Below are positions 11,083 through 28,083 of a stretch of 28,083 nt of DNA, in pieces (the first letter of the stretch is position 1; each line of letters opens with the position of its first letter). Below the pieces are notes generated by a model. It worked only from the letters and a program-made list of their open reading frames with translations, did no database searches and had not been told where the DNA came from. Source of the stretch: Verrucomicrobiota bacterium (GTDB lineage: Bacteria > Verrucomicrobiota > Verrucomicrobiia > Limisphaerales > UBA11358); assembly GCA_049519195.1 (NCBI GenBank), contig JBEKRA010000001.1:1-28083 (forward strand), written 5' to 3'. The position numbers and the translations under genes are program-made.

Positions 11083-14000
11083 GTGCATCGCCGAATATTT
11101 CCATTGCCGGTAAGTCGTCTCGCTTCCGCCGTGGTTGCAATCGGGTTGTTTTTGCGCATGATTTCCGGGGCATTGGCGGCGCCGGCGGATTACCTCGTGG
11201 ATGTCTGGGACACGGAGAACGGCCTGCCCGGCAGCACGGTCACGGCCATCGCCCAAACTTCCGACGGCTATCTCTGGGTGGGCACTTATGCCGGATTGGC
11301 GCGTTTTGACGGCGTGCGGTTTGTCACGTTCGACCCGGCCAACACGCCGGAGTTGAGCCAGCCGCGCGTGCAGGGACTCTTCCTTGATGCCAACGGCACG
11401 CTTTGGATCAACACCTTTCGCGGTGGACTGACGTCGTATCGCAACGGCGTGTTCCGCAACGAGTGGCCGGACCGGGCCGGTTTCGATTTGCACACCACAC
11501 TCGCGGCCTCGTCATCCAATCGCGTCACGTTCGTCACGCAACTGGGCGAAGTGCTGCAGCGCGATCCGGCAGACACGAACGCCAATTGGCTGGTGGTGGC
11601 TCCGCCGACGGATTCGCACCCGATTTTTCAATGCGCCGACCATGAAGGGCGGTTGTGGTTTTTGGCGGGCGACGGACACATCCTTCAATTCAGCGAAGGC
11701 AAATTCAAGGAACTGCCGGGCGATGGTGGTCTGGCCGGTAGCCGGATTTACACGCTGGCGGCTGACCCGCGCGGACGGGTCTGGGCCGGGGCGGAAAATG
11801 AAATCGCCCGCTGGAACGGCACGCGATTTTATTCAATGACACCCACAAACGGCGAGGCGCACATCCGGCCCATGCAATTGTATCCCATGTGGTCAGGCGC
11901 GATGTGGGTGCTGGACAGCGACCGTTTTCGCAAAATGGAATGGCGCGAATGGACGGGTGAGATTGCCGAATGGCGCGGCCTGATCGGGTCTGCATCCAGC
12001 CGCGCAGCAACCGGACATGAGGACCGTGCGGGCGGCATGTGGTTCAACCATTATGGCAACGGGCTTTTTCATATCACGCCGGACGGGCAATTTCAAAGGC
12101 TCGCGACTACGAACGGCCTGCCCGGCGACCGCGTGGGCGCGTGCTTCCAAGGCGATGATGGCGGCATCTGGATCGGCATGGATTACGGCGGACTGGCGCG
12201 TCTGCGCGAACGGCGCTTTAATGTCATCGGCATGACCGAAGGTTTGCCGGCCCGGGTGGCGCTGTCGGTTTGCGAGGATGGCATTGGGGCAATCTGGATT
12301 GGGACCAGCGGCGGCGGGCTGTGCCGCTGGAGTGACGGGAAAATCACCCGCTATCCGGTCGGTGACAGCGCATCGGTGAATTTTGTATTTTCAGTTTTTC
12401 CACGCGCCGGCGGCGGCACCTGGTTGAGCGCGGCGGAAGGAGAGGATTTGTATCAGTTCCACGACGGCCGTGTGGAGCGCGCGTCATGGGAATTGCATGG
12501 CGTCAAATCCATTTTGACCGACCACGTCGGACGGGTGTGGATGGGAACGAAATCGGGCATCGCCCTATGGGATGGAAATGAGCGGCGGATTTTGGGCACG
12601 AACGACAACACTACGCCGCCGGCGGTGCGGGCCTTGGCTGAAACATCGGACGGAACCGTCTGGGCGGGCGCGTTCGACGGGACGTTATATCGTTGCCAGA
12701 CAAACCGGCTCGATCCGTTCCGCCCCAGGGACGGGCTGGCGGATCAGCCGATTTATTCCCTCTACGCCGATTCGCAGGGCGTCATCTGGGCGGGAACGTA
12801 TCGTGGCGGGCTGCTTCGATTCAGGAACGGTGTCTTCAAGAGGATCACGGCCAAACAGGGTCTGCCGGTGGACATCATCTGCCAGATTATGGAGGACAAC
12901 GAAGGACGGCTGTGGCTCGGCACCCACCAGGGCATCTACTGCGTTTCGCGGCAAGCGTTGAATGCCTGTGCGGCAGGCAAGACCAACACGGTGGATTGCG
13001 TCACTTACGGAAAGCGCGACGGTTTGCCGGCGCTGGAATGTTCCGAGCAATACCAGCCGGCCTGCTGGCGGGGCACGAACGGAGTGCTCTGGTTCACGAC
13101 CACCCGCGGCGTGGTCAGCGTCAATCCGGATGAACTGATTTCCAGTCCGTATCCGCTGCCGGTCATCATCGAGGAGATGCGGGTGGACGGCGAGCCGATC
13201 CCGTTGCGCGGCGAAAAAACCATCGTGCCGCCGGGACACAGGCAGTTCGATTTCCGTTTCACCGCGTTGAATTTTGACGCCGGCGACAAGACGCGGTTCC
13301 GTTACCGGATTGACGGGCAGGACGCGGACTGGGTTGATGCCGGGACGCGGCGCGCGGCGCATTACGCGCCGCTGCCGCCGGGCAAATACCATTTCCGCGT
13401 GATCGCCTGCAACAACGAGGGCCAGTGGAACGAGACCAGCGCCGAGCTGGCATTCACCGTCCAGCGGCATTTTTACCAGACGTCCTGGTTTCTGATTCTG
13501 TTCTCCGCCGGCATTCTCGGCGGCACGGTGTTCGCCGCGCGTAAAATCGTCGCGGCCAAATACCGCCGGCAACTAGCGCGGTTGAAGCAGCAACATGCCA
13601 TCGAAAGCGACCGCGCCCGCATCGCCAAGGACATGCACGACGATGTTGGCGCCGGGTTGACGCAAATCGCCCTGCTGACCGAGCTGGCCCGGCGCGAGCC
13701 GGAACGGGTCGGCAAACATCTTGACCGCATCGCCGGCTCGGCCCGGCAATTGACGCGGGCGATGGACGAAATCGTCTGGGCGGTGGACCCGCAGCACGAC
13801 ACGCTAGAAGGATTGATGGACTACATTTCCGCCTACGCCGAGGATTTTCTCCACACGGCGGGAATTCCCTGCCGCATGGACTTGCCGGTGACGCTGCCGG
13901 CGGCGGGCGTGGGAGCCGAATTGCGGCATAATTTATTTCTTTCGTTGAAAGAAGTCCTGAACAACGTGGTCAAGCACGCCCATGCCACCGAGGTCTGGCT

Positions 14001-14280
14001 GCGCCTGCGCATCGGGCCAAAAACGTTCACTCTGATTATTGAGGACAATGGCCGGGGCATTCCCGTCGCTGGTGGCGGCGGCGCGCCCGGCGTCCGCGCG
14101 AACCGCATCGCCGCCGGTTCCGGCCTGGTCAATCTCGAGAAGCGCCTGGCGGCTGTCGCCGGCCGTTGCGAAATCCACAGCCGGCCCGGGCACGGCACGC
14201 GCGTGGAAATGACCGCGGCCATCAACCTGACGTCGGCACCGCCAATTATAGCGATTGGCCGGGACGATGATGTGGATTAG
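11083..14280 (+). CDS. Sensor histidine kinase with periplasmic beta-propeller (Reg_prop) repeats, Y_Y_Y domain, TM helix, HisKA_3 and HATPase
   Basis: Repeats such as GLPGSTVTAIAQTSDGYLWVGT; YAPLPPGKYHFRVIACNNEGQWN; RARIAKDMHDDVGAGLTQI; EVLNNVVKHA; IEDNGRGI. The ORF is open from 10966. GTG 11083 gives the best signal peptide, so the start is uncertain. Confidence 0.92.
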   Translation: MHRRIFPLPVSRLASAVVAIGLFLRMISGALAAPADYLVDVWDTENGLPGSTVTAIAQTSDGYLWVGTYAGLARFDGVRFVTFDPANTPELSQPRVQGLFLDANGTLWINTFRGGLTSYRNGVFRNEWPDRAGFDLHTTLAASSSNRVTFVTQLGEVLQRDPADTNANWLVVAPPTDSHPIFQCADHEGRLWFLAGDGHILQFSEGKFKELPGDGGLAGSRIYTLAADPRGRVWAGAENEIARWNGTRFYSMTPTNGEAHIRPMQLYPMWSGAMWVLDSDRFRKMEWREWTGEIAEWRGLIGSASSRAATGHEDRAGGMWFNHYGNGLFHITPDGQFQRLATTNGLPGDRVGACFQGDDGGIWIGMDYGGLARLRERRFNVIGMTEGLPARVALSVCEDGIGAIWIGTSGGGLCRWSDGKITRYPVGDSASVNFVFSVFPRAGGGTWLSAAEGEDLYQFHDGRVERASWELHGVKSILTDHVGRVWMGTKSGIALWDGNERRILGTNDNTTPPAVRALAETSDGTVWAGAFDGTLYRCQTNRLDPFRPRDGLADQPIYSLYADSQGVIWAGTYRGGLLRFRNGVFKRITAKQGLPVDIICQIMEDNEGRLWLGTHQGIYCVSRQALNACAAGKTNTVDCVTYGKRDGLPALECSEQYQPACWRGTNGVLWFTTTRGVVSVNPDELISSPYPLPVIIEEMRVDGEPIPLRGEKTIVPPGHRQFDFRFTALNFDAGDKTRFRYRIDGQDADWVDAGTRRAAHYAPLPPGKYHFRVIACNNEGQWNETSAELAFTVQRHFYQTSWFLILFSAGILGGTVFAARKIVAAKYRRQLARLKQQHAIESDRARIAKDMHDDVGAGLTQIALLTELARREPERVGKHLDRIAGSARQLTRAMDEIVWAVDPQHDTLEGLMDYISAYAEDFLHTAGIPCRMDLPVTLPAAGVGAELRHNLFLSLKEVLNNVVKHAHATEVWLRLRIGPKTFTLIIEDNGRGIPVAGGGGAPGVRANRIAAGSGLVNLEKRLAAVAGRCEIHSRPGHGTRVEMTAAINLTSAPPIIAIGRDDDVD

Positions 14281-14322
14281 ATTCACCCGATGACGCCAGC
14301 AATCACCAGTGACGGGTTAGGC

Positions 14323-14520
14323 GGGACGATGCAGTTGAGAAGCCGAACCGCCGGGCGAGTAGCTGCGACGCCCCCGTCGCAGAGCGTGCCGGCGACGCCT
14401 CGTCGCCGGAGCCGCCACGCAAACCAAATGGTGTGGCGGATTTCTCGCGCGACGAGGGCGTCGCGCGCACCTTCTGCGACGGGGCGTCGCAGATACGCGT
14501 TCCGGCAACTGAATCGTTCC
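14323..14520. mobile_element. MITE-like nested palindrome between the kinase and the response regulator
   Basis: TIR GGGACGATGCAGTTG / CAACTGAATCGTTCC, with inner inverted pairs CTGCGACGCCCCCGTCGCAGA / TCTGCGACGGGGCGTCGCAG and GCGACGCCTCGTCGC / GCGACGAGGGCGTCGC. Confidence 0.75.
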
Positions 14521-19539: not shown

Positions 19540-20196
19540 TTAAAGCCACAGTTTCAAATTTTCACGAAGAATCTGCCGGGCGCGATAAAGTCTTGATTCC
19601 ACGGCCTTCGGCGTTGTTTCCAAAATGGTTGCGGCCTCGACCAGGCTGTGCTCCTCCCATTCGCACAGCACAATTGCCTCGCGCAAATCGTCCGGCAATT
19701 TGCCGACGGCCGCGCGGACGGCAGCGGCGCGCTCGGCATCGAGCGCCTGTTCGTTCGGTGCGGGAATGTCGGATGGAAGCGTGCTGCCCAGCGTCTGTTC
19801 CGTTTCTGCATTTTCCGTTTCGAGCGAAATGTTCGGATGCCGGCTGCGCCAGCGGAAGTGATTGCGCGCCAGATTTGCGGCGATGGTGTAAAGCCAGGTG
19901 GAAAATCTTTCGCTGGTCCGGAAACTGCCGCTCGACTTGAAAACCCGGACGAAAGTTTCCTGCGCCAGATCATTTGCATCGTCCTCGTTGCCAACCATGC
20001 GGCAGAGGAAATGGAACACCGGCGTGGCGTGGCGTTGCATCAAATCGTTGAGCGCCGTGTCCCGGCCGGCAATCAGGCGTTCCATGTCCGCCCGGTCGCG
20101 GGCGTCGTCGAACTGCCGCGCCAACTCGTCGCGCCGGAGTGAAACGGAGGTGGAAGCCTCCGGCGAAGGCCGGGCATCAGGGCTGGTGATGCTCAT
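19540..20196 (-). CDS. ECF RNA polymerase sigma-70 factor
   Basis: DANDLAQETFVRVF (region 2.2), FSTWLYTIAANLARNHFR, and region 4 VGKLPDDLREAIVL...EAATILETTPKAVESRLYRARQILR. Start uncertain (ATG 20196 or TTG 20220). Confidence 0.95.
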   Translation of the reverse strand: MSITSPDARPSPEASTSVSLRRDELARQFDDARDRADMERLIAGRDTALNDLMQRHATPVFHFLCRMVGNEDDANDLAQETFVRVFKSSGSFRTSERFSTWLYTIAANLARNHFRWRSRHPNISLETENAETEQTLGSTLPSDIPAPNEQALDAERAAAVRAAVGKLPDDLREAIVLCEWEEHSLVEAATILETTPKAVESRLYRARQILRENLKLWL

Positions 20197-20722
20197 GGCC
20201 GGCGGACATGGACTGCTCAATCTCCTCGTGGAAACCGAGCGTGAGTTTTTTCATTTCGGCAAGATAACGGCGGCCCTGCTCCGGCGGCATGGCCTGGCTG
20301 ACGATGATGAAGTGCTGCAACATTTGCGCCTGGCATTGCGCGCGCAGCTCGCCGAGTTCGGTCAGTTTCTTTTGCGCCCCGGCGGTCACATTGGTTCCGT
20401 TGCCGAGCGCGGCTTGAACTTCCGTCTTTTTGGCCGCGATCAACGCGCACATTTTGGCGCATTGCGGCATGTAGCCTTCGTGAAGCTGCCGGACGCGCGC
20501 CATCTCGGCATCGCTCAAATGAAATGCATCGCGCAGCCAGCTCAAATTGTCCGCCGAGCGCGTCATCAGGCACGCACGCTGGCTGACAAAGCAGGCGCCG
20601 GCAAAAACCGCTGCTGCCAGCGTCACGGCACCCAGCAAAATGACAAGCGACCGGCCTTCGCCGGGCCGTAGCTTGCCGGAAAACGGCTGGAATTTTCCGA
20701 AGGGATTGAAATTGTGACGCAT
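20177..20722 (-). CDS. Periplasmic heavy-metal sensor, CnrX/NccX/ZraP/Spy-like helical protein, Cys/Met/His-rich
   Basis: N-terminal TM, LSWLRDAFHLSDAE, LHEGYMPQCAKMC, RAQCQAQMLQHF, MPPEQGRRY and a C-terminal HEHH. The ancestral start was probably ATG 20761, now interrupted by an insertion. Confidence 0.75.
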   Translation of the reverse strand: MRHNFNPFGKFQPFSGKLRPGEGRSLVILLGAVTLAAAVFAGACFVSQRACLMTRSADNLSWLRDAFHLSDAEMARVRQLHEGYMPQCAKMCALIAAKKTEVQAALGNGTNVTAGAQKKLTELGELRAQCQAQMLQHFIIVSQAMPPEQGRRYLAEMKKLTLGFHEEIEQSMSAGHEHHQP

Positions 20723-20752
20723 TGGAAATCAGAGGCTTCGGCCCGGCGAAGG
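20655..20752. mobile_element. 98-bp MITE-like insertion in the sensor start region, flanked by a duplicated CCGG
   Basis: TIR CCTTCGCCGGGCCGTAGC / GCTTCGGCCCGGCGAAGG; CCGG at 20651-20654 and 20753-20756. Confidence 0.85.
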
Positions 20753-20761
20753 CCGGTTCAT

Positions 20762-21076
20762 TTAACGCAATGAATTCGGCGCGACTGCGGCAAGATAACG
20801 CGCCTGCGCGTCCTGCCTGGCGGTTTGCGCGCCTTGATAAGTTCCCAGCAAAACACCCGCCAGCACCAGAGTGGCGACCGTGGCGTAGGCGAATCGTGGC
20901 CGCAACACCAGCGAGGCGAGCGCATCCAGCCAGGAGCCGGATTTCACCGGCGCTTCGGCTTCCTCAATCCGCCGCCAGACATTTTCCTGAAAGCGCGGCG
21001 GCAGCAAAGGCGACGGGCGCGCGGCGCGCAGGACTTCGCAAAATTCGGTGTCGCTTGGATTCATGTTTTCTTTCAT
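20762..21076 (-). CDS. Putative single-pass anti-sigma factor (CnrY-like architecture, 104 aa)
   Basis: MKENMNPSDTEFCEVLRAARPSPLLPPRFQENVWRRI, then TM FAYATVATLVLAGVLLGTY and a short periplasmic tail (ARYLAAVAP). First gene of the operon that ends in the ECF sigma. The longer 253-aa ORF-track extension overlaps the helicase gene and is unlikely. Confidence 0.7.
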   Translation of the reverse strand: MKENMNPSDTEFCEVLRAARPSPLLPPRFQENVWRRIEEAEAPVKSGSWLDALASLVLRPRFAYATVATLVLAGVLLGTYQGAQTARQDAQARYLAAVAPNSLR

Positions 21077-21172
21077 CGGTTCATGGGCGGCGGTGTTATT
21101 GTCCGCCGCCCATATTCTATCGTTTTTGTTGCGCCGGGCAATCCGGCAGACTTCATCTGGTTGTATATCTGT

Positions 21173-21201
21173 CTTACCCCGGCCAGCCGGAAATCCCTCA
21201 A
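21173..21201 (-). promoter_or_regulatory. Putative ECF-sigma promoter of the regulatory operon
   Basis: TTGAGGGATTTC-N12-GTAAG on the minus strand. Identical boxes and spacing at 23550-23578. Confidence 0.8.
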
Positions 21202-21248
21202 AAATCCACAAGCCCCGGCAGATGCGGGAAATATTTCCCGCTGCACGC

Positions 21249-21276
21249 TTGCCTTCACTTCGCGGCAAACTAAACT
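21249..21276 (+). promoter_or_regulatory. Putative sigma70 promoter of the helicase (near-leaderless)
   Basis: TTGCCT-N16-TAAACT ending 8 nt before ATG 21285. Confidence 0.45.
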
Positions 21277-21284
21277 TCGCGCCC

Positions 21285-23441
21285 ATGTTGGATTTGAAAA
21301 CGCTCAACCCGCAGCAGCGCCAGGCGGCCGAAACCGTCAAAGGTCCGGTGCTCATTCTTGCCGGCGCGGGCACCGGCAAGACGCGCGTCATCACGTTCCG
21401 CATCGCGCACATGGTCGCGCGCGGGATTTCGCCGACGCACATCCTCGGCGTCACGTTCACCAACAAGGCCGCGCGCGAAATGCAGGAGCGGGTGAAAAAA
21501 CTTGTGCCGCGCCCGCGCGCCAATTCTGACCCTCAACTCTCAACCCTCAACTCTCAACCAACAATCTGCACGTTTCACTCGCTCTGCGTCCGCATTTTGC
21601 GGCAGCACATCGAAAAGCTCGGCTACAAGCGCAATTTCGTCATCTACGACGAATCGGAGCAGCTTGGCGCGGTCAAAAAGATTTTGAGCAGCATTTCCGC
21701 GAAGGGCGAGAAGGTTGACCCCGGCGCGGTGCTGGCGGTGTTGAGCAAATTCAAAAATCAAGTGGCACAGGCGTCTTGCCTGTCAGGTTCTGAAAAGAAA
21801 CACACAGGCGGGACGCCTGTGCCACTATTTGGTGATCCGAGCGTCCGCGCGCTGGCGCAGCACATTGCCAAGCGTTACGAATCCGCATTGCACGCCTGCA
21901 ACGCCGTGGATTTTGATGATTTGATCCTGCTCACGCTGCGGCTGTTCCGCGAGCAGCCTGACACGCTCGCAGCCTGCCGCGCGAAATTTCGTTACGTCAT
22001 GGTGGACGAGTATCAGGACACGAACGCCGCGCAATTTGAGCTGGTCCACGCGCTCACGAAGGAGCACCGGAATCTCTGCGTGGTCGGCGACGACGACCAG
22101 AGCATCTACGGCTGGCGCGGCGCGGAGATCGCCAACCTGCTCGACATGGAAAAGCATTTCCCCGAGGTCAAAATCATCAAGCTGGAGCAGAATTACCGCA
22201 GCACCAGGACGATTCTCAACGCCGCCAACGCCATCATCAAGCACAACGTCCGGCGGCGCGGCAAATCGCTGTGGTCAAGCAAGGGCGCGGGCGGGAAAAT
22301 CCAGTTGCACACGTTTAACAACGACGAAACCGAGGCGCGCGAAATCGTGGCGCAGATTGAATTCAAGCGGCTGGCGCACCGGACGCCTTGGCGGGATTGC
22401 GCGATCCTCTTCCGCACGAACCAGCAGTCGCGTCCGCTTGAAACCGCGCTACGCACCGCCGGCGTGCGCTATCATTTGATCGGCGGCCAGAGCTTCTTTG
22501 ATCGGCGCGAGGTGAAGGATTTTCTCGCCTACCTGAAAATGTTCCTGAACCCGCACGATGACATCAGCCTTTTGCGCATCGCCAATGTGCCGGCGCGCGG
22601 CTTGAGCGACGTGACGATGGAACGGCTGCTCGGCGCGAGCCACGACCGGAAATGTTCCGTCTTCACCGCGATGAAAAATCCGCTGGTGACGACGACGTTC
22701 CAGTCCAACACGCGCAAAAGCATCGAGGCGTTTGTGGAATTCGTCGAGCGGACACGCGGGCAACTCGGTAGTGGCACAGGCATCTTGCCTGTGAGTTCCG
22801 AAAGCAAGACAAGCCCAGAAATACACAGGCAAGATGCCTGTGCCACTACTTTCATGCTCGCGCGATGGGCCGACCATTTCCTGAACGAGACCGGTTATTT
22901 CGCCGAACTTCGCCGTCAGGAAAAGAATCCGGAGAACAGTGAGGGCCGCGTCCGCAATCTGAAGGAATTCATGGCGACAATGGACCGCCCGGCGGGCGGC
23001 GGCTCATCACCCGCCGAGCGGCTGGGAAATTTTATCGAAGAAATCACGCTCGACACCGAGCGCGAGGAGGAGGAGGAAAACACCGGCGACGCCGTAACGC
23101 TTATCACGATGCACTCGTGCAAGGGGCTGGAATTCCCGCACGTCTTCATCGTCGGGCTGGAGGACGGACTGTTGCCGCACTCGCGGTCCAAGGCCGAAGG
23201 CACGCTTGACGAGGAGCGGCGGCTATTTTACGTGGCGGTGACGCGAGCGATGCAGACGCTCACCATCAGCCATTGCGGCGGGCGGAAGAAATACGGCCAG
23301 GTGCTGCCATGCCATCCGTCGCCGTTCCTGAAGGAACTGCCGGAGGAACTTGTCGAACATTCCGACTCGAAATCCAAGACACCCGTCGCGCCGGAATCGG
23401 GGAAAGGTCTGTTCGCGGCGATGCGCCAGGCCGTCACCTGA
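21285..23441 (+). CDS. UvrD/PcrA/Rep-family SF1A DNA helicase
   Basis: LILAGAGTGKTRVIT, VTFTNKAAREM, TFHSLCVRILR, DEYQD, VGDDDQSIYGWRGA, LEQNYRS, HSCKGLEF and EERRLFYVAVTRA. Start ATG 21285; the ORF-track upstream extension overlaps the divergent promoter. Confidence 0.97.
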   Translation: MLDLKTLNPQQRQAAETVKGPVLILAGAGTGKTRVITFRIAHMVARGISPTHILGVTFTNKAAREMQERVKKLVPRPRANSDPQLSTLNSQPTICTFHSLCVRILRQHIEKLGYKRNFVIYDESEQLGAVKKILSSISAKGEKVDPGAVLAVLSKFKNQVAQASCLSGSEKKHTGGTPVPLFGDPSVRALAQHIAKRYESALHACNAVDFDDLILLTLRLFREQPDTLAACRAKFRYVMVDEYQDTNAAQFELVHALTKEHRNLCVVGDDDQSIYGWRGAEIANLLDMEKHFPEVKIIKLEQNYRSTRTILNAANAIIKHNVRRRGKSLWSSKGAGGKIQLHTFNNDETEAREIVAQIEFKRLAHRTPWRDCAILFRTNQQSRPLETALRTAGVRYHLIGGQSFFDRREVKDFLAYLKMFLNPHDDISLLRIANVPARGLSDVTMERLLGASHDRKCSVFTAMKNPLVTTTFQSNTRKSIEAFVEFVERTRGQLGSGTGILPVSSESKTSPEIHRQDACATTFMLARWADHFLNETGYFAELRRQEKNPENSEGRVRNLKEFMATMDRPAGGGSSPAERLGNFIEEITLDTEREEEEENTGDAVTLITMHSCKGLEFPHVFIVGLEDGLLPHSRSKAEGTLDEERRLFYVAVTRAMQTLTISHCGGRKKYGQVLPCHPSPFLKELPEELVEHSDSKSKTPVAPESGKGLFAAMRQAVT
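21532..21559 (+). repeat. Heptamer tandem repeat (CTCAACY)x4 inside the helicase
   Basis: CTCAACT CTCAACC CTCAACT CTCAACC, translated as PQLSTLNSQP just before TFHS. Confidence 0.85.
21761..21826. repeat. 66-bp REP-like palindrome in frame inside the helicase
   Basis: Perfect 15-bp TIR AGTGGCACAGGCGTC / GACGCCTGTGCCACT; peptide VAQASCLSGSEKKHTGGTPVPL. Confidence 0.9.
22768..22849. repeat. REP-like palindrome in frame inside the helicase
   Basis: Perfect 26-bp inverted repeat GTAGTGGCACAGGCATCTTGCCTGTG / CACAGGCAAGATGCCTGTGCCACTAC; peptide SGTGILPVSSESKTSPEIHRQDACAT. Confidence 0.9.
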
Positions 23442-23549
23442 AGACGGATTGTTGGGCTGCAAAACTGGCGGTTTTGCCACCCCGACTACTTGCTAATTTC
23501 ATTCAGAAGGCCATCTTTGAGGCGGTTGTGCGGGAAATTCCAAAATTAG

Positions 23550-23578
23550 TTGAGGGATTTCAGCTTTAGTGGTGTAAG
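23550..23578 (+). promoter_or_regulatory. Putative ECF-sigma promoter of the metal-efflux operon
   Basis: TTGAGGGATTTC-AGCTTTAGTGGT-GTAAG, ending 48 nt before ATG 23627. Matches 21173-21201. Confidence 0.8.
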
Positions 23579-23626
23579 CATAGTCAGCGCACCAAAAGCG
23601 GGCGCACAACTAAACAAATCAATATC

Positions 23627-23971
23627 ATGAAATTATTCAATCGCATCAGCCGCCGGGTGGCGACCGGACTGGTTTTGGCCGCGGTGTTCGCCATGGTGCC
23701 GGCAATCATCCACGCCGACGGCACCAATGCCGTCAAAGCCGCCGAATCCAAACCCACGCCGTATCCGCTGCAAACCTGCGTCGTGTCCGGCGATAAACTC
23801 GGCGGGATGGGCGACCCGATCGTGTTCGTCTATACCAACAAGGGCATCAATCAGGAAATCAAATTTTGTTGTCCGATGTGCAAGTCGAAATTTCTTGCCG
23901 ACCCGGACAAATACATGAAGATCGTCCACGATGCCGAGGCCAAGGTGAAAGCCAAGGACGCTAAAAATTGA
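23627..23971 (+). CDS. Exported YHS/TRASH-like metal-binding protein
   Basis: Signal peptide, then TCVVSGDKL...IKFCCPMCKSKFLADPDKY. Confidence 0.85.
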   Translation: MKLFNRISRRVATGLVLAAVFAMVPAIIHADGTNAVKAAESKPTPYPLQTCVVSGDKLGGMGDPIVFVYTNKGINQEIKFCCPMCKSKFLADPDKYMKIVHDAEAKVKAKDAKN

Positions 23972-24027
23972 CGGATTCACGTCAAAAAAGCCTGGCGGTT
24001 TCCCGGCGGGTGCATGACATTAGAAAC

Positions 24028-24375
24028 GTGAAAACGACGTGGGCCATCATTTGCAGCCTGGTGCTGGCGGGAACACCGTTCCTGCTCGCGCAAACGCCGT
24101 TGCCGGTGTGCCGCGCGAAACAGCCGGTTCCCGCGTGCTGCCAGCATGGCTGCAAAATGCCGTGCTGCTCGCCAAAACCGGCGTCGGATTCGAAGCCGGC
24201 CCCGGCGGTTCCGGCGCAGACTGGCGGCCAGAACCAAGTTTCATTTCTTGCACCCAACGCTCTGGTCTGGGTTTTGCCTGACGCCCCGGTTTCCAAACTT
24301 TCGTCCACCACTCAAATCTCGCTTGTGACGAAGGGCAGTCCGCTTTACGCGAGGAACTGCGCCCGGCTGATCTGA
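24028..24375 (+). CDS. Small exported Cys-rich protein upstream of the RND genes (possible leader/regulatory peptide)
   Basis: GTG 24028 (or TTG 23968 overlapping the YHS stop), hydrophobic N-terminus, CCQHGCKMPCC cluster, Pro-rich linker and C-terminal PLYARNCARLI. Confidence 0.65.
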   Translation: MKTTWAIICSLVLAGTPFLLAQTPLPVCRAKQPVPACCQHGCKMPCCSPKPASDSKPAPAVPAQTGGQNQVSFLAPNALVWVLPDAPVSKLSSTTQISLVTKGSPLYARNCARLI

Positions 24376-24486
24376 TTTTTCTCCTCCCACACCCGCAGTG
24401 TGCCCATGAACGGCGCGCTGCGTCCCAGTCCGTTTTGTATCCGTGAATTTGTTGTGTCCGTGAAATGCGTTAATAATCGAAAATTT

Positions 24487-25833
24487 ATGAAGTCAGTTGC
24501 CATCTTATGTGTGTTTGCCGTCGGCGGGCTGGTGCTCGCCGGTTGCCGGGGCATCCAGACATCGGGCGAAAAGCAGGCGCGCCAGGATTTTGGCGCTGTC
24601 GCCGGTCAATACCGGCCCGCCAACCGCCCGGCTTTGCCGGAGTTGACACCGGATTCGAGCTTGAGCAATTTTGTCGCGTCCGCGCTGCTCAACCAGCCGC
24701 AGGTTGCGACGGCATATTACGATTGGGCGGCGTCCATCGAAGGCATAACGGTCGCCCGTTCGCTGCCGGACCCTCAATTGACCTTCCAATCGGACATCGC
24801 GGACATCGTGATGAACTTGATGCCCGGTTTTCTCCAGGAATTTCCCGGCCCCGGCAAACTCAAGGCGCGCGCCAGAGTCGCCGGCGCGGAAAGCCGGGGC
24901 AAATACTTCGCGTTTGAAAGCGCAGTGCTGCAAACCGCGTTCAACCTGAAAAACGCCTATTACAAGCTTGGCCTGTTGGACGAACAGCTTCACCTCAAAC
25001 GCGCGACGCTTGCGTTGCTGGAAAATCAGGAGCGCGTTCTCCGCGCCCAAGGCATGGCGGGCATGGCATCGCTGCCGGATGTGCTGCGCGTCCAAAGCGA
25101 ACTCGACCGCATCCGCAATGAAATCGCCAATCTCGAAGACTCACGGGGTTCGTTGCTGGAAAATTTCAAGGCCGCGCTGGGTCTGACGCCCGAACAACCA
25201 GATCCGCCAACACCAGCGCATTTTGAAACGAGCGGCGAAAACCCCGACGCTGACGAACTGTTTCGTTTTGCGTTCGCGCACAATCCGCAGCTTGCGGCGA
25301 TGGCTGCCGACGTGCGCGCCGCCGAAGCCGGGATTGCGATGGCTTACAAGGAGCGCGTGCCGGATTTCAGCCTCGGCTTGATGGCCGATGTCAAGGCCTC
25401 GCCCACGATGTTCCGTCCGCTGGCGGGCATGACGCTGCCCATCTGGCGCGACAAGCTCGCGGCGGAAATCGCACAGGCACAGGCAAACGAGCTGGCGGCA
25501 AAATCGCGGCTGAAGGCGGCGCAAATTGACCTTGCCGTGAGTTTTGCCGAGAAGTCGTTTGCCTGCCGTGAAACCAGCCGCAATCTAACACTGATTGAGA
25601 AAGAATTGATTCCCAAGGCGCGTCAATCCGTTGAAACCGTCCGCGCCGGTTATCGCACCGGCACGATGGATTTTTCCGCCATGACCGACGCAGATCGAAC
25701 GGTGTTGGATTTGCAACTGGAAGCCGTTCTAGCCCGGACCGACCGCGAGCTGGCGCTGGCGGAATTATCACTCATGGTTGCCGGTGTGCCGCCGGCAAAC
25801 GCGCCGCTTTTGTCGAATACCCCTCAACCTTGA
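24487..25833 (+). CDS. TolC-family outer-membrane factor lipoprotein (CusC-like position)
   Basis: Lipobox VLAGC after the start MKSVAILC (24487), OEP-type helical repeats (ARSLPDP.L, ERVPDFSLG). Directly upstream of the cusB/cusA-like genes. Confidence 0.9.
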   Translation: MKSVAILCVFAVGGLVLAGCRGIQTSGEKQARQDFGAVAGQYRPANRPALPELTPDSSLSNFVASALLNQPQVATAYYDWAASIEGITVARSLPDPQLTFQSDIADIVMNLMPGFLQEFPGPGKLKARARVAGAESRGKYFAFESAVLQTAFNLKNAYYKLGLLDEQLHLKRATLALLENQERVLRAQGMAGMASLPDVLRVQSELDRIRNEIANLEDSRGSLLENFKAALGLTPEQPDPPTPAHFETSGENPDADELFRFAFAHNPQLAAMAADVRAAEAGIAMAYKERVPDFSLGLMADVKASPTMFRPLAGMTLPIWRDKLAAEIAQAQANELAAKSRLKAAQIDLAVSFAEKSFACRETSRNLTLIEKELIPKARQSVETVRAGYRTGTMDFSAMTDADRTVLDLQLEAVLARTDRELALAELSLMVAGVPPANAPLLSNTPQP

Positions 25834-25839
25834 AATTTT

Positions 25840-27603
25840 ATGAAATCGAAATTGAAAATGATTTTAACCTGGATATTTCTCCGCCGAAGCATGGCGCGGA
25901 TCGAAAAGCGGCGGAGGGCCGCCGCAGTCCAAAACGCTGGCGCGTTTGACGATGCGTCCAGCGTGCGCGAAGCGTCCTGGAGTGCGCCAGTCCTCTGGCG
26001 CTTGAGGATTTTGAAAATGCGCCTTTTGATCGGAATGCTGCTCATCACGGCGATGGGTTTGTGCGTGTTCGCCGCCGACAATTCCATCCAGCCGGAAGCA
26101 ACCAACGCCACCGCCGCTTCTTCCGGGAAAACGCTTTACACCTGCGGGATGCACCCGTGGATCATTCAGGATCATCCCGGCAACTGCCCGATTTGCGGCA
26201 TGAAACTTGAACCGGTTCACAAAACCGCGCGTGCCGGGGAGGCGTCATCGTCGGCCATCATCGTTGACCCGGCGACGATTCAGTTGATGAACATCCAGAC
26301 GACGGAAGTCGCGCGCGGCCCGCTGCGCCGGACCATCCGCACCGTCGGCACAATTGATTACAACGAAACCGCGTTGGCGGACGTGACGACGAAGTTCAAG
26401 GGCTGGATTGAAAAGCTGGACGTGGACGCCACCGGCAAGTTGGTGCATCGCGGCGAGCCGTTGTTTGAAATTTACTCGCCGGAACTTTACAGCGCCGAGG
26501 CCGAATATCTGGCCATGTTGAATTCGACGAACGGTTCAGGCGGGACGACGCTGCGCGAGGCGGCTCGGGACAAGTTGAAATTTTTTGACATCTCGGACGC
26601 GCAAATCGCCAAGTTGGAAAAATCGCCCGCGCCAAAGAAGACACTGGAAATCCTCGCGCCGGCGGATGGATTCGTGATTGAGAAAAATGTCGTGCAGGGC
26701 CAGATGGTGGAGGCCGGCATGAAGCTTTACCGGCTGGCCGACCTCGGCATCGTCTGGGTTTTCGCGCAGGTTTACGAGCAGGATTTGCCCTACGTCCAGC
26801 TCGGCCAGGAGGCGACCGTCAAATTGTCGTCGCTGCCGGACCGCGAATTTCGCGGGCGCGTCACCTATGTTTATCCGAACGTGGATGAAAAGACGCGCAC
26901 GGCGAAGGTGCGGCTGGAATTTGAGAACCCCGGTTATTTCCTGAAGCCCGGCATGTTCGTCTCGGCGCAAATCACGGCGGAATTGGAAGCCTCCGCGTTG
27001 CTGGTGCCGGATTCGGCGGTGCTGCGCAGCGGCGAGAGAAACACGGTGTTCGTCGCGCTGCCCGGTGGCAAATTTGACCCGTGCATGGTCGCGCTCGGCC
27101 CGGAATCGGAACATGACATGGTTGAAGTCATCAGCGGTTTGCAGGAAGGCGAGCGGGTCGTCGCCTCCGGACAATTCATGCTGGATTCAGAAAGCCAGTT
27201 GCGCGAGGCAATCCAGAAAATGAATGGCAATTTGGGGTGGGGCGAGACTACTGGCGAGCCGAATAGCACAACCAATTCTCCGACCATAGACGGCTCGCGA
27301 GGACGCTCGCCCCACCAGGCTGAAGCGGCTGAAGGCGTGGTCTATGTCTGCCCGATGCCGGAGCACGCGAGCGTTCATGAAGACAAGCCGGGCAAATGTC
27401 CCATTTGCGCCATGACATTAATTCCGGTGATGGCGCCGCCGGGAGCAGCCACGAATTCAGCGACAACAAATACCATTTCAGCCTCCAACACGCAGTCGGC
27501 AGCCAAGCAGCTTTACACCTGCCCGATGCATCCCGATGTGATTTCTGACAAGCCCGGCAAATGCCCGGAGTGCGGGATGAATCTGGTGCCAGTTGAAAAA
27601 TGA
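25840..27603 (+). CDS. cusB: CusB-like RND periplasmic adaptor with three heavy-metal-binding (YxCxMH/P...CPxCxM) domains
   Basis: Core motifs KFKGWIEKL, LFEIYSPELYSAEAEY, LADLGIVWV, YPNVDEKTRTAKVR, LKPGMFV and SGQFMLDSESQLREA. One N-terminal and two C-terminal metal-binding domains. Confidence 0.92.
   Translation: MKSKLKMILTWIFLRRSMARIEKRRRAAAVQNAGAFDDASSVREASWSAPVLWRLRILKMRLLIGMLLITAMGLCVFAADNSIQPEATNATAASSGKTLYTCGMHPWIIQDHPGNCPICGMKLEPVHKTARAGEASSSAIIVDPATIQLMNIQTTEVARGPLRRTIRTVGTIDYNETALADVTTKFKGWIEKLDVDATGKLVHRGEPLFEIYSPELYSAEAEYLAMLNSTNGSGGTTLREAARDKLKFFDISDAQIAKLEKSPAPKKTLEILAPADGFVIEKNVVQGQMVEAGMKLYRLADLGIVWVFAQVYEQDLPYVQLGQEATVKLSSLPDREFRGRVTYVYPNVDEKTRTAKVRLEFENPGYFLKPGMFVSAQITAELEASALLVPDSAVLRSGERNTVFVALPGGKFDPCMVALGPESEHDMVEVISGLQEGERVVASGQFMLDSESQLREAIQKMNGNLGWGETTGEPNSTTNSPTIDGSRGRSPHQAEAAEGVVYVCPMPEHASVHEDKPGKCPICAMTLIPVMAPPGAATNSATTNTISASNTQSAAKQLYTCPMHPDVISDKPGKCPECGMNLVPVEK
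25905..26003. repeat. 99-bp REP-like element in frame in the cusB N-terminal region
   Basis: Reverse complement of 3666-3764. Peptide around KRRRAAAVQNAGAFDDASSVREASWSAPVLWR. Confidence 0.85.
27236..27316. repeat. 81-bp REP-like palindrome in frame inside cusB
   Basis: GGTGGGGCGAGACTACTGGCGAGCC ... GGCTCGCGAGGACGCTCGCCCCACC, same family as 153-221. Peptide WGETTGEP...GSRGRSPHQ. Confidence 0.9.
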
Positions 27604-27650
27604 CCAACGAGGAAATGCGAATGCTGAATGTTCATAACAGTTCGTTTTGG

Positions 27651-27806
27651 GGTGGCACAGGCCTCCGGCCTGTTGTTTCGGGCGTCGCGCCCGAAACCGT
27701 TGGCAGGCGGACGATTGCTCCACCATTGTCAATGAACCAGCGATCCACCTCCCCCAACGAAATTCGGCGTGACGCCGAATTTGACGGGCGCGACGCCCGT
27801 TCCACC
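27651..27806. repeat. Multi-hairpin REP-like element between cusB and cusA
   Basis: GGTGGCACAGGCCTCCGGCCTGT ... ACGGGCGCGACGCCCGTTCCACC, with inner CGGGCGTCGCGCCCG and TTCGGCGTGACGCCGAA hairpins. Related to the helicase insertions. Confidence 0.8.
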
Positions 27807-27816
27807 TGACAAAAAT

Positions 27817-28083
27817 ATGCTCACGCGCATCATAGATTTTTCGCTCAAGAACAAGTTCATCGTCCTGCTGGTGACGGTGGTGCTGGTGCTCGGCGGCGTT
27901 TACGCGTTGCGCAATATCCCGCTCGACGCCATCCCCGACCTGTCCGACACGCAGGTCATCATTTACACGCCGTGGGAAGGCCAGGCGCCAAACATCGTCG
28001 AGGACCAGGTCACCTATCCCATCACCACCAAGATGCTTTCCATGCCGCGCGCGAAAGTGGTGCGCGGTTACTCGTTCTACGGC
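27817..28083 (+). CDS. cusA: CusA/SilA-type heavy-metal RND permease, 5' fragment
   Basis: Hand translation: MLTRIIDFSLKNKFIVLL...IPLDAIPDLSDTQVIIYTPWEGQAPNIVEDQVTYPITTKMLSMPRAKVVRGYSFYG. The DAIPDLSD.QV and EDQVTYP signature is Cus/Sil-type. Confidence 0.92.
   Translation, partial: MLTRIIDFSLKNKFIVLLVTVVLVLGGVYALRNIPLDAIPDLSDTQVIIYTPWEGQAPNIVEDQVTYPITTKMLSMPRAKVVRGYSFYG

Follow-up and report, generated by a model that had tools for sequence, protein, structure and literature searches.

Cu(I) and Ag(I) efflux by Cus pumps is classically controlled by the two-component system CusRS. Another regulatory design is represented by cnrYXH-cnrCBAT of Cupriavidus metallidurans CH34 (plasmid pMOL28) and by nccYXH, in which overlapping genes encode, in this order, an anti-sigma factor, a sensor, and an extracytoplasmic function (ECF) sigma factor. 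There, sigma-type promoters precede both the regulatory operon and the operon for an outer-membrane factor (OMF), a membrane-fusion protein (MFP), and a resistance-nodulation-division (RND) permease. Here, we describe a locus of an uncultured peat Verrucomicrobium in which a module of the second design appears to be joined to a pump of the first. The window, meaning the entire stretch of DNA analyzed (28,083 nucleotides [nt]), is the whole of contig C1 (GenBank JBEKRA010000001.1) from assembly GCA_049519195.1 (2.78 Mb, 528 contigs, 73% complete). A minus-strand operon encodes a candidate anti-sigma factor, a periplasmic sensor, and an ECF sigma factor, a divergent plus-strand operon encodes a Cus-type pump, and both are preceded by the same predicted promoter motif with the geometry of the cnr promoters. 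From these features, the organism very probably switches on a Cu/Ag efflux pump via an alternative sigma factor, a membrane anti-sigma factor, and a periplasmic metal sensor.

The metal-responsive ECF factors given in a 2019 review are FecI, FpvI, PvdS, CnrH, CarQ, CorE, and CorE2 (PMC6851896). In a 2023 review of copper signaling, CorE is the sole ECF factor named and CusRS is given as the regulator of cusCFBA (PMC10141476); the copper-responsive ECF factors in these reviews are CarQ and CorE only (PMC6851896, PMC10141476). CorE and CorE2 of Myxococcus xanthus parallel the window system in placing copper-handling genes under an ECF sigma factor. However, CorE senses the metal in the cytoplasm via a Cys-rich C-terminal extension and has no anti-sigma factor, whereas the window sigma factor is without such an extension and is encoded with an anti-sigma factor and a periplasmic sensor. 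Within ECF classification 2.0, group ECF291 (formerly part of ECF20) has an anti-sigma factor similar to CnrY encoded at position -2 and a full metal-efflux operon nearby, and CnrH is its studied member (PMC7826278). The regulatory design reported here is a textbook one, foreshadowed by the ECF classification; what sets it apart is the ligand set of the sensor, the class of pump, and the spread in an environmentally abundant phylum. An earlier note on this DNA knew of no description of the pairing in Verrucomicrobiota. In our search of the full-text literature, no paper was found in which an ECF factor under anti-sigma control drives a Cus pump, nor one that brings together Verrucomicrobia, ECF, copper, and RND.

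The link between the two operons begins with the pattern TTGAGGGATTTC-N12-GTAAG, which the earlier note had placed before each of them. The window contains exactly two matches, at 21201-21173 (minus strand) and 23550-23578 (plus strand), and none of 100 dinucleotide-preserving shuffles of the window yielded the pattern. Both sites are intergenic and are oriented into the regulatory and pump operons, respectively. The two 29-mers agree at 21 of 29 bases: the 17 in the boxes are all identical, as are 4 of the 12 in the spacer. When a weight matrix derived from 17 related sites was run over the whole assembly, the window sites scored 40.7 and 34.7 bits and the third-ranked match 16.3 bits. The predicted ECF-type promoter of the regulatory operon (21173-21201, minus strand) has TTGAGGGATTT as its -35 box and CGGGGTAAG as its -10 box; that of the pump operon (23550-23578, plus strand) has TTGAGGGATTT and TGGTGTAAG. 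Because the start of cnrYp lies 12 nt past the G of GTA, transcription is predicted to begin near 21165 (minus strand) and 23586 (plus strand), with leaders of 89 and 41 nt. In the probable source run, a peat metagenome, exact contigs tile the locus and span both promoter junctions, so the layout is not an assembly chimera.

Conservation among relatives was used to judge whether the motif functions. A scan of species-representative genomes retrieved 240 loci, the best 80 of which were examined for motif and gene order. Nearly all of these 80 are labelled Verrucomicrobiota, Verrucomicrobiia, Limisphaerales, or 'subdivision 3', and they come from peat, bog, lake, and soil. The anti-sigma/sensor/sigma order is kept in 79 of the 80, and the motif occurs on the coding strand no more than 800 nt upstream of the regulatory operon in 73 of those 79. 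A divergent YHS-(Cys-rich)-OMF-CusB-CusA operon is present in 48 of the 80 loci and has its own inward-pointing copy of the motif in 44. A search upstream of orthologous operons was the check proposed in the earlier note, and the outcome is strongly in its favor. These comparative data support the motif as a real promoter.

The related loci also refine the motif. Information content is ~2 bits at G3, G5, G7, T9, T10, G22, G23, G25, T26, and A27 and below 0.5 bit per position over most of the spacer. Ahead of the -35 box lies a tract rich in A/T, and the refined consensus reads aaaaatTTTTG(C/A)GGGnTTT(T/C)-N8-CGG(G/T)GTA(A/T). The boxes as first drawn stand in that all 17 bases are identical in the window while the spacer differs, but their limits had to be revised: the conserved -10 element (CGG[G/T]GTA) takes in four bases of the originally proposed N12 spacer, and the last two bases of GTAAG are variable among relatives. 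Position 24 of the 29-mer (window 21178 and 23573), directly before GTA, is G in 62 of 73 regulatory promoters and T in 34 of 44 pump promoters. The window sites display the same G versus T class difference, which may serve to tune promoter strength.

Several observations tie the motif to the neighboring sigma factor. Of 36 genomes of the genus, 24 have the module and 12 do not; a bona fide motif was found in 23 of the former and in 1 of the latter (Fisher p = 2e-7, a value calculated over kin that are not independent). When five near-complete relatives were searched with a strict pattern that tolerated one mismatch, the motif was located only at the module locus or the pump, and reversed-pattern controls gave zero matches. 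The association persists where the operons are apart: in genome G011, the sigma operon lies on contig C8 and the YHS-Cys-rich-OMF operon on contig C4, and the motif is still found 44 nt before the YHS gene. Conversely, genomes G034 (96% complete), G019, and G026 carry YHS or pump operons with neither the motif nor a detected module. The promoters of cnrYXH provide an external reference. When the pMOL28 promoters cnrYp and cnrCp and both window sites were anchored on the G of GTA, all four had GGG at -20 to -18 and a (C/G)GTA(T/A) -10 element. For cnrYp, primer extension and run-off transcription established both the CCGTATA element and the start, which lies 23 bp before cnrY (PMC13492112). The ECF Hub consensus for ECF291 is quoted in the same paper as ATACGC / CCCTCA (PMC13492112); by our own reading, its reverse complement, TGAGGG...GCGTAT, appears to resemble the window motif. 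It is highly likely that the neighboring sigma factor reads the motif. Separately, loose-pattern matches on other contigs of the relatives were considered as further regulon members. The three recurrent ones that were examined lie inside long open frames without an upstream T tract and were set aside as coding look-alikes. The YHS/pump operons without the motif, in genomes in which the sigma module was not found, are those at loci L148, L149, L150 (G026), and L152.

We compared the proteins of the regulatory operon with their cnrYXH counterparts. Gene order and protein types are those given in the earlier note. The first gene (20762-21076, minus strand) encodes a candidate anti-sigma factor of 104 amino acids with two cytoplasmic helices, a single membrane helix, and a short periplasmic tail. 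In the structural model, the cytoplasmic helices span residues 7-19 and 27-41, and the tail carries the invariant residues Y94 and P100. CnrY, at 95 amino acids, is close in size and has the same build of two cytoplasmic helices plus one membrane helix (PMC6851896). The last gene (19540-20196, minus strand), which begins within the final 20 nt of the sensor gene, encodes an ECF sigma factor of 218 amino acids with Sigma70_r2 and r4_2 domains. With CnrH, this protein shares 31% identity (E 5e-20). Five relatives, each with 20-46 ECF candidates, all have the module sigma factor as their top CnrH match, with margins of 7-21 bits.

Between these genes lies that of a membrane-anchored periplasmic sensor of 181 amino acids (20177-20722, minus strand), which scores 36.3 bits with PF13801 (Metal_resist, the CnrX family; cut-off, 29.2). 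The AlphaFold (AF2) model built from 21 orthologs (mean pLDDT, 84.7) has a membrane helix at its N terminus and a long helical hairpin. Its top fold matches in the PDB are CnrXs entries, with target-normalised template modeling (TM) scores of 0.70-0.74, root-mean-square deviations of 2.4-3.5 Å over ~100 residues, and a probability of 1.00; ZraP, NccX, CpxP, and Spy rank next. Although ZraP, CpxP, and Spy share the helical-hairpin superfamily with the window sensor, they are soluble chaperones or modulators of two-component pathways and not membrane-anchored partners of an anti-sigma factor. Residues C88, C92, C130, M134, and Y84 are invariant across the sensor orthologs, and H81 is nearly so. 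Where CnrX employs H42, H46, E63, H119, and M123, the window sensor presents C88, C92, C130, and M134. In the model, each of the two antiparallel long helices contributes an i,i+4 pair, C88/C92 on one and C130/M134 on the other. Counted from the hairpin turn, the pairs match in distance: C88 and C92 precede it by 18 and 14 residues, and C130 and M134 follow it by 16 and 20. Judged from the helix register, these four residues could together make a single Cys3-Met site, shifted toward the tip of the hairpin.

The sensor family is widespread. Within the genus, 24 of 36 genomes have an ortholog, as do 7 of 24 other families of the order, and the sensor family as a whole extends over at least 240 species-level genomes and ~1900 protein clusters. 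Some of its members are annotated automatically as 'periplasmic heavy metal sensor'. Orthologs begin MNRSLVILLG, and the window protein starts 22 residues earlier, at an ATG that lies in a lineage-specific insertion. This insertion, of ~100 bp at the start of the sensor gene (window 20651-20764), has no second copy in the assembly.

The pump operon lies on the plus strand. Its first gene encodes an exported YHS/TRASH-like small protein (23627-23971) that has orthologs in relatives and matches PF04945 below the cut-off. A Cys-rich small open reading frame (ORF) of no family follows (23968-24375) and is conserved in many relatives. The remaining genes encode an OMF (24400-25833; PF02321), a CusB-like membrane-fusion protein with three HMBD metal-binding modules (25840-27603), and the N-terminal part (first 105 codons) of a CusA/CzcA-family RND permease (27769-28083; likely ATG at 27817), which is cut by the contig end. 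The CusB-like adaptor matches PF16576 at 9.9e-81 and the CusB model NF007303 at 199.9 bits, below its 390 cut-off. To judge the class of the permease, we turned to a full-length ortholog from genome G032, which scores 1146 bits against Escherichia coli CusA (53% identical) versus 495 against ZneA. It keeps the methionine triad M573/M623/M672 and the relay methionines M271, M391, M403, M410, M486, M501, and M1009. The same assembly as the window contains, on contig C64, a fragment of 612 codons that is 85% identical to the G032 ortholog and has the triad; it is the probable continuation of the window permease. Because of the CusA scores and the methionine triad, the pump output is classed by sequence as Cu(I)/Ag(I)-type rather than Cnr/Ncc/Czc-type, which bears out the Cus-type pump of the earlier note.

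Set against the described systems, the locus is a composite. With CusRS-CusCFBA of E. coli, it shares the OMF, the CusB-like adaptor, and a CusA with M573/M623/M672; unlike there, the pump is preceded by the YHS/TRASH-like protein and the Cys-rich ORF, and control is predicted to be by sigma and anti-sigma factors. Neither a CusRS-type two-component system nor CusF is encoded beside the pump in the window. The window encodes a single two-component pair, made up of a Reg_prop/Y_Y_Y/HisKA_3 kinase and a LuxR-type regulator, and this pair does not belong to the CusRS type. With cnrYXH, the locus shares the small single-pass anti-sigma factor with two cytoplasmic helices and the PF13801 sensor of CnrX fold. 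In contrast to cnrYXH, the pump is of the CusA type and not a divalent-cation CnrA/NccA pump (Ni/Co), the operons are divergent and not tandem, the host phylum is Verrucomicrobiota, and in most relatives the first gene encodes an additional small secreted protein.

These elements suggest a mechanism. At rest, the 104-residue single-pass anti-sigma factor would tether the sigma factor at the membrane by its two cytoplasmic helices, and the membrane-anchored sensor of CnrX fold would touch the short periplasmic tail of the anti-sigma factor. Binding of a ligand by the sensor, most likely Cu(I) or Ag(I) at the Cys88/Cys92/Cys130/Met134 cluster on the hairpin, would lead to release of the sigma factor. 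By analogy, release in the manner of CnrYX is modestly favored. The free sigma factor would steer RNA polymerase to two promoters of the form TTG(A/C)GGGnTTT(T/C)-N8-CGG(G/T)GTA(A/T). From the first, its own regulatory operon would be transcribed, providing positive feedback; from the second, the YHS protein, the Cys-rich protein, the OMF, the CusB-like adaptor, and a CusA-type RND permease that would export periplasmic Cu(I)/Ag(I). We consider it probable, with good but not full confidence, that the locus is an autoregulated ECF sigma circuit of cnrYXH build controlling a Cus-type pump. The autoregulated switch over a Cu(I)/Ag(I)-type pump that the earlier note proposed is supported by motif conservation, orientation, and module co-occurrence, and the metal itself is what we infer. 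A further proposal, to which we give slightly less than even weight, is that the CnrX fold has been re-tooled in Verrucomicrobiota as a Cys-based periplasmic Cu(I)/Ag(I) sensor (C88/C92/C130/M134). Its site would lie 1-2 helical turns from the Ni/Co site, signaling would pass through an anti-sigma factor unrelated in sequence to CnrY, and the whole would constitute a widespread sigma-based replacement for CusRS control.

If correct, the transmembrane signaling design of CnrYX would not be confined to Ni/Co in Betaproteobacteria and would have a version with ligands for a soft metal. It would also represent the common mode of copper-export control in the abundant Verrucomicrobiota of peat, soil, and lakes. 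The promoter signature could be used to annotate such regulons in metagenomes, and the compact, apparently orthogonal sigma/promoter pair (two or few sites per genome) may find use in biosensors.

Several results weigh against the proposed circuit or its kinship with cnrYXH. The anti-sigma candidate matches no Pfam family and shows no sequence similarity to CnrY (hhalign probability 0.15%), and a PDB search with it was also empty. In a search of solved structures, the overall sequence of the sigma factor is nearer to SigH/AlgU/SigW/RpoE-type factors (E ~1e-26) than to CnrH (6e-16). By plain similarity, the window sigma factor is closer to RpoE/SigW/SigH-type factors. A plasmid tblastn search returned generic RpoE-like factors as top matches and is uninformative for placement beside CnrH. 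The sequence alignment of the sensor with CnrX is marginal (hhalign E 0.006), and the CnrX ligands H42, H46, E63, H119, and M123 are not kept as such, corresponding in this low-confidence alignment to S61, D65, E82, H137, and V141; H137 is H or Y in relatives. Of the cnrYXH architecture claimed in the earlier note, the gene order and the sensor type hold; the anti-sigma candidate shows no sequence homology with CnrY, and the sigma factor cannot be placed clearly nearer to CnrH than to factors of the RpoE/SigW type. Genome G035 (81% complete) has the motif, on a 4.2-kb contig, but no detected module. Two RNA libraries gave only short contigs of relatives (85-95% alike), from which no start sites emerged. 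Finally, the module is rearranged in the window: its first gene is missing, the start of the sensor has been replaced by an insertion, and a repeat lies between cusB and cusA. No reading frame is broken by these changes, but they render the working state of the window copy less certain than the family-level inference.

The alternative that survives best accepts the wiring and changes the signal. In place of Cu(I)/Ag(I), the sensor would respond to thiol/disulfide state (a redox or envelope-stress switch) or to another metal (Au, Hg, Cd, Zn, Ni, or Co), and the Cus pump would be one output only. The conserved sensor residues are Cys-rich (C88, C92, C130), periplasmic cysteines are often oxidised, and those of the sensor could form a disulfide instead of a metal site. 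Partial counterparts of the CnrX site also remain, with H81 and E82 by CnrX E63 and H137 at CnrX H119, and the His-rich C-terminal tail (GHEHH) suits divalent ions. In relatives, the regulon also takes in small Cys proteins that are secreted, as well as TRASH/YHS-like proteins with no assigned specificity. Against this, the regulon includes a single transporter, a pump of the CusA type that has both the relay methionines and the methionine triad for Cu(I)/Ag(I), and next to it a CusB-like adaptor bearing HMBD modules. Sites made of Cys and Met are typical of Cu(I)/Ag(I). We regard a different signal as rather unlikely, though deserving of serious attention, and Cu/Ag, judged solely from the pump type and the Cys/Met residues, as the somewhat better than even choice.

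A second alternative keeps the motif but assigns it to a different reader, be it the housekeeping sigma factor, another ECF factor, or a DNA-binding regulator, such that module and pump would be linked by neighborhood only. The motif opens with TTG and includes TA(A/T), which permits a weak sigma-70 reading, and cnrYp itself has been argued to be a hybrid RpoD/CnrH promoter (PMC13492112). The module-less genome G026 is also relevant here, as its pump promoter retains TGGTGTATAAT. However, the window sites fail a simple sigma-70 scan, and the spacer from TTG to TA would be 19 nt. Each direction of transcription has its own oriented copy of the motif, the invariant G-rich -35 box and GTA -10 box match CnrH promoters, and, from genome to genome, the motif occurs together with the module and is missing before the pump operons of genomes in which no module was found. 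Reading by the neighboring sigma factor is much preferred, and a different reader appears improbable. Two specific candidates of this kind were rejected. An operator of the MerR or response-regulator type is disfavored because the sites contain no dyad or direct repeat and the spacer is unconserved. As to a sigma-70 promoter, besides the failed consensus scan, one unrelated weak candidate was found at 21141-21114 (minus strand), at chance level. The promoter region of G026 (L150:1440-1480) retains TGGTGTATAAT without the GGGnTTT box and looks like a switch to a housekeeping-type promoter.

That the identical boxes are a functionless chance match or remnant of local duplication, as might be supposed from there being only two copies in the genome, is given almost no credence in light of the shuffled controls, the unrelated spacer, the occurrence of the same boxes in ~120 promoters of other species, and 30-nt flanks that agree at only 4/30 and 7/30 positions, so that the two sites are not copies of one recent duplication.

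Beyond the promoters, the leader of the regulatory operon differs between the window and its relatives. In most relatives (L032:8960-9310; L036:10738-11073, minus strand; most loci in L068-L147), the first gene after the sigma-operon promoter encodes a secreted protein of 105-118 amino acids. This protein belongs to no Pfam family and carries a pair of LSPRAxxNQ repeats and, at the C terminus, the motif C..M.GSPKA.QxC..NP.MPxC. The window has lost the gene (absent from 21076-21173); the promoter, the first leader bases, and the hairpin before the anti-sigma gene remain. In genome G003 (L036), the gene is duplicated, each copy with its own motif. Extra motif copies in this genome (L036:11223-11453, minus strand, and 13112-14395, plus strand) precede small TRASH/YHS-like proteins, a 158-amino-acid secreted protein with SPRM repeats and an APLK end, and a 174-amino-acid Cys-rich secreted protein. 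Judged by such motif copies, the regulon is larger in some relatives.

Two hairpins were recognized in the leader region. The first, GGGCGGCGG-N9-CCGCCGCCC (21083-21111, minus strand), stands directly before the anti-sigma start codon. It is kept in L031 and L032, where it lies between the gene of the small secreted protein and the anti-sigma gene, and it may be an intra-operon attenuator or an element for processing or stability. The second, with loop GCAAUGAAGC, was observed in the leaders of 42 related loci, ~20-50 nt past the -10 box, with compensatory changes in 5 of 6 stem pairs. A remnant of it is present in the window near 21140-21155 (minus strand), its 5' arm deleted. An Rfam search of the window gave zero matches.

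Between the two operons lies a gene for a UvrD/PcrA-type helicase (21285-23441, plus strand), which is outside the regulon and absent at this place in most relatives. It contains two copies of a palindromic repeat (21761-21830 and 22768-22851), in frame and unbroken, from a family of ~40 copies in the assembly, and a CTCAAC-type short tandem repeat at 21527-21560, also in frame. Another repeat, of ~160 bp, separates the cusB stop from the cusA start (27650-27816) and has 28 other matches in the assembly, 73-84% identical among those listed; at the corresponding locus of genome G032 (L039), the gap between cusB and cusA is 8 nt.

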